From: an uncultured Lachnospiraceae bacterium
GTDB lineage: Bacteria > Bacillota > Clostridia > Lachnospirales > Lachnospiraceae
DNA: 64,000 bases
Direction: 5' to 3'
NCBI GenBank assembly: GCA_947167445.1
Contig: CAMVID010000008.1
Coordinates: 206-64,205 of the forward strand
The translations under genes and the position numbers were made by a program. The stretch's first letter is position 1. The number at the start of each line of letters is the position of its first letter. The notes beneath the pieces are model-generated. The model was not told where the DNA came from, ran no database searches, and saw only the letters and a list, made by a program, of their open reading frames with translations. Positions 41,155 to 41,400 of this stretch are shown piece after piece.

Positions 41155-41400
41155 TCAGATTGAAAAAGGATTAAAGAACAGTAATACAAGTACAAATGCA
41201 AAGAGCAAGAGTAAAAGCAAGGTTATGATAATAGCCACAAACATAACTGACTGAACTACGTCACTCTTTGTCTCCGGATTACGTCCGATGGCTTCCGCCA
41301 CCTTTGCACCCAGAATCCCCAATCCGATTCCCGAGCCTAAAAAAGCCATGCCAAGAATCAGCCCTACCGCATGCATTGTTTCCGCTAAAATTGAATCCAT
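41155..41400 (-). CDS. F-type ATPase c-like subunit lacking the ion-binding carboxylate
   Basis: I moved the start to ATG 41398-41400 (GGAGG 5 nt upstream); the track starts at TTG 41412. It is a helical hairpin with GSGIGLG packing motif and GRNPE loop. Helix 2, [25 protein letters not shown], has no Asp or Glu. Confidence 0.75.

Follow-up and report, generated by a model that had tools for sequence, protein, structure and literature searches.

What does a rotary ATPase do once its membrane ring has lost the residue that binds the ion? To our knowledge, every characterised F-, V- and A-type ring couples rotation to an ion gradient through a carboxylate. The question is raised by a 64,000-nucleotide stretch of DNA from an uncultured Lachnospiraceae bacterium (GenBank assembly GCA_947167445.1, contig CAMVID010000008.1, positions 206 to 64,205; hereafter the window), in which a gene for a c-like subunit of 81 residues (41155..41400, minus strand) encodes a two-helix hairpin that carries threonine where canonical c subunits carry glutamate or aspartate. 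We find that the product of this gene is very probably a functional, ion-uncoupled c subunit of a repurposed ATPase, and we assign a probability of roughly 60% to the reading in which that ATPase is a distinct, conserved F-type paralogue that no longer handles ions and serves as an ATP-driven motor acting on surface proteins.

A c subunit without its ion ligands

The open reading frame (ORF) of the c-like gene begins with an ATG at 41400, seven bases after a GGAGGA ribosome-binding site, and runs for 81 codons. We identified its product from a Pfam match, from alignments to solved and canonical c subunits and from the statistics of its family. The protein matched PF00137 (ATP-synt_C) with 36.5 bits (E 6e-9; gathering cut-off 24), and a transmembrane (TM) scan showed two hydrophobic helices. 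Its best relatives among solved structures were Acetobacterium woodii c1 (4BEM, E 1.6e-13) and c2/3 (E 1.2e-9), with chloroplast c and Ilyobacter tartaricus c also near the top. Like the canonical F-type c subunits of A. woodii (c2/3), I. tartaricus and chloroplasts, it belongs to the PF00137 fold family, is of the same length and contains a GxGxGxG motif, an R-N/Q-P-E loop and an NPF sequence; its gene also takes the same place in the operon, directly before those for b/delta and alpha. The retained elements comprise the helix-1 motif G22-x-G24-x-G26-x-G28-xx-G31 (GxGxGxG at 41308-41337), the polar loop G39-R40-N41-P42-E43 (RNPE at 41272-41283) and the C-terminal N77-P78-F79. All five glycines of helix 1 and the five loop residues were invariant in 28 diverse family members, and the F1-facing loop GRNPETK was invariant across the family members compared.

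The difference from canonical subunits lies at the ion site. In HMMER alignments, Thr60 (codon ACC, 41221-41223) stood opposite the Glu that binds the ion in A. woodii c2 and in chloroplast c, and it again fell in the ion-site Glu/Asp column of a MAFFT alignment with four textbook c subunits entered by hand (E. coli, I. tartaricus, spinach and Bacillus PS3). Between the RNPE loop and the C-terminal NPF the alignment is free of gaps, with no insertion or deletion, so the register of the ion site is unambiguous. Residues 50-81, which include helix 2 (residues 52-76, 41173-41247), hold no Asp or Glu at all, and the Na+-ligating Gln of I. tartaricus c aligns with Leu27, a position occupied by Leu or Met in the family. 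On these alignments, every ion-ligating residue of the c subunit is replaced by a hydrophobic or small residue. The original prediction, made from the bare sequence, had described a retained glycine motif and polar loop, a helix 2 devoid of Asp and Glu, and an ion site without a carboxylate; the alignments bear out all three points, and the coordinates given for helix 2 were exact.

Profile scores agreed with this picture. The equivalog cut-offs of the NCBIfam models for F0 subunit c were far from reached, with the best model, NF005363, giving 38.7 bits against 71 and TIGR01260 giving 23.8 against 43.95. Judged by its sequence, the c-like protein is a member of the c/proteolipid fold family, yet fails the functional definition of an ion-translocating c subunit. 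It is established that neither H+ nor Na+ can be moved by an F-type ring devoid of carboxylate and subunit a, from which it follows that a ring built of this protein would be unable to translocate ions.

Loss of the carboxylate across the family

A search of 5.8 billion proteins returned 584 relatives of the c-like protein. The best 120 of these were 80-87 residues long (one 73-residue fragment apart) and 68-98% identical; every one of them matched PF00137 and lacked the carboxylate. Relatives were present in at least 293 species genomes in a scan that covered one genome per species. In 174 unique family sequences the ion-site residue was Thr (138), Ala (27), Val (5) or Ser (4), and none of the 174 had an Asp or Glu within residues 50-76. 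An exhaustive HMMER search of 1.84 billion representative proteins gave a clean split between canonical c subunits and carboxylate-less members, the latter being the proteins that contain the GRNPETK loop plus a small number of remoter forms. Among the matches listed, E or D is present in all canonical c subunits of the single-hairpin type. Such a distribution places the loss of the carboxylate, as read from these sequences, far beyond chance.

The c gene also bears the mark of selection. Against six relatives its ratio of nonsynonymous to synonymous substitution rates (dN/dS) was 0.05-0.14, so the gene is under purifying selection and not a pseudogene. An identical c protein is encoded in two independent assemblies, and the gene is 100% identical to that of Lachnospiraceae bacterium G11, a rumen isolate (FMWZ01000008.1). 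Retention of the Glu in homologues would have pointed to a decaying copy, a check proposed along with the original prediction; since all 174 unique relatives lack it, decay does not account for the loss.

Also among the matches from the search of representative proteins were some of great length, P0212 (1139 residues), P0226 (631), P0289 (968) and P0224 (1892), in which 6-15 c-like stretches follow one another in tandem; these may be fused multi-hairpin rings.

An F-type operon lacking subunit a

The c gene lies within a block of 11 genes on the same strand (minus; 23937-49438), which we name, in order of transcription, giantA (2120 residues), p542, c, p271, alpha, gamma, beta, p96, p181, p236 and giantB (3717 residues). 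A strong terminator-like hairpin (49812-49834) precedes the block, inside which the scan listed weak terminator-like sites only. The genes for c, b-delta, alpha, gamma, beta and an epsilon-like protein follow the canonical atpE-F-H-A-G-D-C order, and p542 occupies the place of atpB (subunit a) just before c. The canonical F1Fo set is thus incomplete, with c, fused b-delta, alpha, gamma, beta and epsilon-like subunits in atp order and subunit a absent.

The catalytic head is represented by an alpha-like subunit (39017..40375, 452 residues, PF00006 E 1e-71; its true start may be Met12) and a beta-like catalytic subunit (36626..38005, 459 residues, PF00006 E 1.5e-63), and the shaft by a gamma-like subunit (38223..39020, 265 residues, PF00231 83.9 bits with a gathering cut-off of 39.9). 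Against the NCBIfam equivalog models, alpha scored 426 bits on atpA (cut-off 554), beta 444 bits on atpD (cut-off 463) and gamma 57.7 bits on atpG (cut-off 194), so that on these profiles all three lie below the equivalog cut-offs, as expected of a diverged paralogue. Across related loci alpha keeps its P-loop GDKKTGKT and its Arg-finger motif SRLGG, and beta its P-loop GGAGVGKT (71 of 75 loci) and GERSRE with its catalytic Glu (72 of 75). Given the conservation of these motifs, ATP hydrolysis by the alpha/beta-like head is plausible. The operon does not resemble an N-ATPase: alpha, beta and gamma all fell far under the alt_F1F0 cut-offs, alt_F1F0_F0_C gave 19.9 bits against 130.85, and the Na+ ligands are absent. 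Between the gamma stop and the beta start we noted, in strain G11, a gap of 217 base pairs (38006-38222) with a 67-residue ORF (38002-38205), a spacing that recurs in the close relative L005; Kineothrix and the majority of other loci have gamma adjacent to beta or overlapping it.

Directly after beta, in the manner of atpC, lies p96 (36361..36651), an epsilon-like protein that consists of the beta-sandwich only. Its family profile had just two matches in the PDB, mitochondrial delta and bacterial epsilon (E 0.87 and 1.8). With hhalign it aligned end to end with Bacillus PS3 epsilon (E 0.007, low probability), and its positional equivalent in a distant locus, L086, matches PF02823.

The gene between c and alpha, p271 (40326..41141), appears to encode the peripheral stalk. 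Its AlphaFold2 model (mean confidence, pLDDT, 78.7) comprises a helix of residues 2-79 that would serve as N-terminal TM segment and stalk, a linker, a six-helix domain and a small beta domain. Because its top 35 or so Foldseek matches in the PDB were all delta/OSCP proteins, including the mycobacterial b-delta fusion (probability 0.97-0.99, E from 1.3e-3), the model identifies p271 as a fused b-delta stalk. Its family profile gave a weak match to chloroplast subunit b (E 0.009), and sequence searches of the PDB otherwise returned coiled-coil noise. The mycobacterial fusion shares with p271 the N-terminal TM helix, the stalk helix and the delta/OSCP domain; in contrast to the shorter p271, it has about 430 residues, works alongside a second b and a subunit a, and is proton-coupled. 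Compared with a canonical atp operon, the genes as read here differ in three ways: the gene for subunit a is gone, b and delta are fused, and the ion ligands of c are replaced.

Subunit a left no trace in the window. Pfam gave no ATP-synt_A match in the operon or in the rest of the window, to which the search was confined, and the subunit is not annotated in any of about 85 related loci. The only polytopic protein of the operon is p181 (35819..36364), for which the TM scan indicated about four TM helices. Positional equivalents of 167-196 residues occur in 55 of 83 loci, forming a very divergent family without an invariant residue, most members of which have an Asn in mid-helix. Searches of p181 against all PDB sequences, by phmmer and by family profile, returned no match, and its AlphaFold2 model (pLDDT 77.5) found no Foldseek match with E<1. 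We rejected p181 as a divergent subunit a on these two results and on the lack of an invariant Arg in its family; as a guess, it is a candidate membrane partner of the stator.

Distribution of the gene block

Using tblastn and ORF calling, we found the same gene order in almost all of 83 loci (about 80), from Lachnospiraceae, Oscillospiraceae, Family XIII, Erysipelotrichaceae, Coprobacillus and RF39-like Bacilli labelled 'Mycoplasma sp. CAG:472'. In Bacilli-type loci gamma is shifted to the end and giantB is absent. Genes beyond the block vary between genomes, which makes the block the unit; in the window the genes on either side of it are housekeeping ones, with recA, rny and those of aromatic amino-acid biosynthesis among them. 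Several metagenome-assembled genomes (MAGs) carry more than one copy of the whole cluster, with three in Tb.RUG.141 (L027, L053, L058) and two each as L043 with L069 and L047 with L071. Because one MAG holds three copies and all subunits score below the NCBIfam equivalog cut-offs, the enzyme is, on this genomic evidence, not a housekeeping one.

Four further, distant carboxylate-less c genes could be traced to contigs, all with the same layout lacking subunit a and two of them with giant proteins. One locus, L085, lies on an actinobacterium-like contig of 74% G+C (Logan SRR31343226, 1643-16649) and encodes, in order, proteins of 1984 and 751 residues, c, a stalk protein of 336 residues, alpha, gamma, beta, a protein of 171 residues, a 5-TM protein and a protein of 143 residues; its c subunit has Val at the ion site and keeps the Gln of the Na+ site. 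A protein further upstream on this contig matched pAdhesive_6. The second, L088 (31% G+C), encodes proteins of 701, 1828 and 781 residues, the last with an MRKLDKKN start like that of p542, followed by c, a protein of 314 residues, alpha, gamma, beta and a protein of 81 residues. L086 and L084 are smaller variants of the layout. Since subunit a is absent from all four loci (L084, L085, L086 and L088), losses of the carboxylate and of subunit a coincide repeatedly.

Giant surface proteins flank the ATPase genes

The ATPase genes are flanked by giant surface proteins in about 80 loci. In most loci the gene immediately upstream of p542 is giantA (43076..49438, 2120 residues). Its N-terminal TM helix is followed by a juxtamembrane domain, a run of 23 collagen-like G-X-Y triplets (residues 264-332; Pfam Collagen 28.4 bits, with matches to Scl-like collagen in NCBIfam) and about 1800 residues without a known domain. 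p542 (41429..43057) is built along similar lines: a cytoplasmic MRKLxK start leads into an N-terminal TM helix and a juxtamembrane domain, beyond which come 24 GGX repeats (residues 250-321) and a distal domain. Its start, MRKL(N/D)KK(N/S)K (about 43030-43057), is conserved from Lachnospiraceae to RF39-like Bacilli and to the distant 31% G+C lineage (L088:7628), which is unusual for a simple membrane anchor. Downstream of the ATPase genes, p236 (35112..35822) combines an N-terminal TM helix with a juxtamembrane ectodomain of about 200 residues; it is kept in 73 loci, and a sequence search against the PDB gave nothing useful. giantB (23937..35090, 3717 residues), found in Clostridia-type loci only, has a TM helix at each end, whereas the TM scan gave giantA, p542 and p236 a single N-terminal one. 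Fourteen N/Y-V/A-G-G-I/V-x-G repeats ('NVGGIxG'-type) are spread over residues 1308-2680 of giantB at a spacing of about 30-60 residues. This pattern suggests a long beta-helix, and we take the repeats to resemble the GLUG type, for which Pfam gave no match.

Profile comparisons with hhalign revealed that the juxtamembrane domain of about 200 residues is homologous between giantA and p542 (96%, E 1.5e-9) and between giantA and p236 (87%, E 4e-6), with a weaker relation between p236 and giantB (62%, E 7e-5). The four cluster proteins look like paralogous base modules, each made of a TM helix and a juxtamembrane domain of no known family, with differing distal parts. In Clostridia-type loci the G-X-Y stretch of giantA and the GGX stretch of p542 lie equally far from the membrane, about 230 residues above it; both are missing in RF39-like Bacilli loci and in a few Clostridia-labelled MAGs (L011-L025, L031, L041). 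We compared giantA and giantB with Pfam and NCBIfam, including gliding proteins of Mycoplasma mobile, and obtained matches to collagen repeats only and no family for giantB; membership of the giants in known surface families was rejected on this result.

A PAS-GGDEF diguanylate cyclase (50510-52576) lies just upstream of the block and a methyl-accepting chemotaxis protein (13888-15651) downstream, a linkage that is not kept in Kineothrix, whose cluster has MatE and an aminotransferase next to it. A third large gene, giantC (18511-22593), encodes a surface protein of 1360 residues that opens with a signal peptide, continues in a long coiled coil like that of M proteins and ends in a C-terminal TM anchor, and is probably unrelated to the cluster; we rejected it as a part of the system, as it stands 1.3 kb and one helix-turn-helix (HTH) gene away and is of different build. 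That HTH gene (22817-23167) encodes 116 residues and is antitoxin-like. A PADLOC scan for anti-phage defence gave no match, and a role in defence was rejected on that result.

Discussion

Our analysis points to an F-type ATPase paralogue whose ring would be a passive rotor or bearing and not a device for energy conversion. In the model that we favour, an ATP-driven motor acting on surface proteins, the complex would hydrolyse ATP and thereby turn gamma, epsilon and a c ring that is smooth and blind to ions. The membrane stator against which they turn would be made of the TM helix of the b-delta protein p271, probably together with the 4-TM protein p181. Torque, or a cyclic motion of rotor against stator, would then be handed to the co-encoded proteins giantA, p542, p236 and giantB at the membrane, so that the machine would power a surface event such as movement, adhesion or release, or the remodelling of giant surface fibres. 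The enzyme would run solely as an ATP-driven motor. Real rotation of the ring is favoured here because a stator stalk would be worth keeping only if rotor and stator are held against torque.

The original prediction had proposed that subunit a is missing, that the ring can still assemble and rotate or serve as a membrane base, and that the ATPase has been repurposed. The first point agrees with the lack of any ATP-synt_A match and with the sequence and predicted fold of p181, which are unlike those of subunit a; the second gains new, if predictive, support from the retained b-delta stalk and the invariant GRNPETK loop; and the conserved surface-protein flanks fit the third.

Several observations weigh against a motor of this kind. 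The link between the ring and the surface proteins is one of conserved synteny and membrane topology only. giantB is missing from the Bacilli-type variant, so that not all surface partners can be essential. The epsilon-like assignment of p96, with E about 1, is weak but consistent; for the delta-like domain of p271 the Foldseek E-values are modest (1e-3 to 1e-2), the case resting on the agreement of the top matches; and p181 has neither a recognisable fold relative nor an invariant residue.

Among other explanations, the one that survives best is that the ring does not turn at all and only tethers an F1-like ATPase, which would help to export, fold or assemble the giant proteins in the manner of FliI/FliH/FliJ. 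This arrangement, which we regard as unlikely though worth keeping in mind, has real attractions. The FliI-FliH-FliJ system is likewise derived from F1, has b-delta-like and gamma-like partners and serves at the membrane in a role outside bioenergetics; the FliI/YscN models also give scores for alpha and beta; the genes next door encode very large exported proteins whose N termini form signal-like anchors; and no element of the operon proves rotation. However, the FliI/YscN scores are well below those for ATP synthase subunits, with 167 and 207 bits on TIGR01026 (cut-off 379.5) and all such matches within 167-210 bits, compared with 426-444 for atpA/atpD. Type III export ATPases such as FliI and YscN are homohexamers without a c ring, whereas here distinct alpha and beta genes predict a heterohexamer, and gamma, an epsilon-like protein, a ring and a b-delta stalk have all been kept under selection. 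A full set of rotor and stator parts makes most sense if torque between them matters. Nor does the cluster encode anything like an export gate, p181 having only about 180 residues.

A bolder version of torque transfer, which we consider improbable, would make the complex a new class of rotary machine. Here the ATP motor would pass torque across the membrane, the ion-blind ring would hold the N-terminal TM helices of some of the surface proteins in its lumen or on its rim, and the G-X-Y and GGX stalks would act as shafts through the cell wall, cranking giant fibres against partners anchored to the stator. Single-pass proteins do sit inside V-ATPase c rings. The motors of mycoplasma gliding and of MIB-MIP could descend from such a machine, or it could be their independent analogue.

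It is also conceivable, at long odds, that the carboxylate-less c subunit mixes with a housekeeping c and subunit a in a hybrid ring and so tunes the ratio of ions to ATP, like A. woodii c1. The A. woodii c1/c2 pair holds the best solved relative; in one of the c1 hairpins it is a Gln that aligns with the site, and there is thus a precedent for carboxylate-free hairpins in working rings. In A. woodii, however, the silent hairpin of c1 is fused to an active one, the ring otherwise consists of active c2/3, and the enzyme has a subunit a, whereas the single c gene of the present operon has no active hairpin at all. Moreover, the operon has its own alpha, beta, gamma, epsilon and b-delta, which speaks for a separate enzyme and not for an accessory c; in about 85 loci its companions are invariably surface-protein genes and in no case a gene for subunit a, and one MAG contains three copies.

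Slimmer still is the chance that the ring carries a non-ionic cargo. A pocket of Thr, Ala or Ser amid Leu would bind a ligand that is neutral or lipidic, perhaps a lipid-linked precursor needed by the surface proteins, and rotation past p181 would move it across or along the membrane. What the site keeps is indeed small or polar (T, A, S or V) and not a random hydrophobic residue, and p181, with its mid-helix Asn in most members, is a membrane partner of conserved position. Against this, the cluster has no transferase or flippase gene, no other evidence of a ligand emerged, and the tolerance of Ala and Val means that the site is not invariant, which argues against a specific pocket. Finally, a decaying pseudogene, a sequencing error or a misaligned ordinary c subunit, for which nothing speaks beyond the initial oddity, was rejected as having practically no probability, given the identical protein in two assemblies, the dN/dS values, the 174 of 174 sequences without carboxylate and the gap-free alignment.

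How does an ATP-driven motor acting on surface proteins compare with known systems? Canonical F-type c subunits have a helix-2 Glu or Asp where this family has Thr, Ala, Val or Ser, and, unlike this family, a co-encoded subunit a. A. woodii c1 (4BEM), the closest solved relative, provides the precedent of one carboxylate-free hairpin. In function, the nearest counterparts may be the F1-like X0 ATPases of mycoplasmas, of which Type 2 is the gliding motor of M. mobile and Type 3 is needed for antibody cleavage by MIB-MIP (PMC3369863; 10.64898/2025.12.04.692339). Both there and here, paralogous alpha/beta/gamma/epsilon-like ATPases lack subunit a and have ties to surface proteins, which in our case are ties of synteny only. 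The X0 enzymes are encoded apart from the housekeeping enzyme, as is presumably the present one, and spend ATP on work at the cell surface, as we propose here. Their seven-gene clusters, however, have no c, b or delta and include membrane proteins that are not Fo subunits, a 12-TM protein takes the place of c in Type 3, and their alpha lacks the delta-binding N-terminal helix, whereas the c ring and b-delta stalk are kept here. Scores on the models of MSC_0618/0619 and MMOB1660/1670 were under the cut-offs and under the atpA/atpD scores. By analogy, the system appears to work most like the F1-like X0 ATPases, yet is not a member of that group.

A second point of comparison is the 'ATP synthase-like operon' lmo0088-lmo0093 of Listeria monocytogenes, which encodes c, delta, alpha, gamma, beta and epsilon, has neither a nor b, and is flanked by hypothetical genes (PMC13082608, Table 2). 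It exists in addition to the housekeeping atp operon (lmo2531 and neighbours), and an lmo0091 mutant replicates poorly in host cells (PMC3091722, PMC5736727). Compared by annotation and not by c sequence, it has the same subunit order and no subunit a; giant neighbours are not reported for it, and no mechanism is proposed in the papers that we found. By this likeness, lmo0088-lmo0093 may belong to the same class.

In the literature we found no account of the cluster, nor of any c ring free of the carboxylate; the search returned only the mycoplasma systems and the bare annotation of lmo0088-0093, and most subscription journals were outside it. The new elements are that the ion site is lost throughout the family, that b and delta are fused, that the link to giant surface proteins is fixed and that the family is so widely distributed; extra atp operons without subunit a can be seen in existing annotations.

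A ring without its carboxylate, in an enzyme whose rotor, stator and catalytic head all stay under selection, would separate the notion of a rotary ATPase from that of an ion pump or ATP synthase. The family is encoded by at least 293 species of gut and rumen Firmicutes, with distant relatives that include the contig of 74% G+C, and its annotation as 'F0F1 ATP synthase subunit C' may lead metabolic reconstructions to credit these organisms wrongly with an extra ATP synthase. Cultured hosts exist in Lachnospiraceae bacterium G11 (FMWZ01) and Kineothrix alysoides KNHs209 (NZ_JPNB01), and the link to giant proteins provides a testable case of cytoplasmic ATP powering events outside the Gram-positive wall. 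The family may also offer an evolutionary context for the F1-like motors of mycoplasmas and for the unexplained second atp operon of Listeria.

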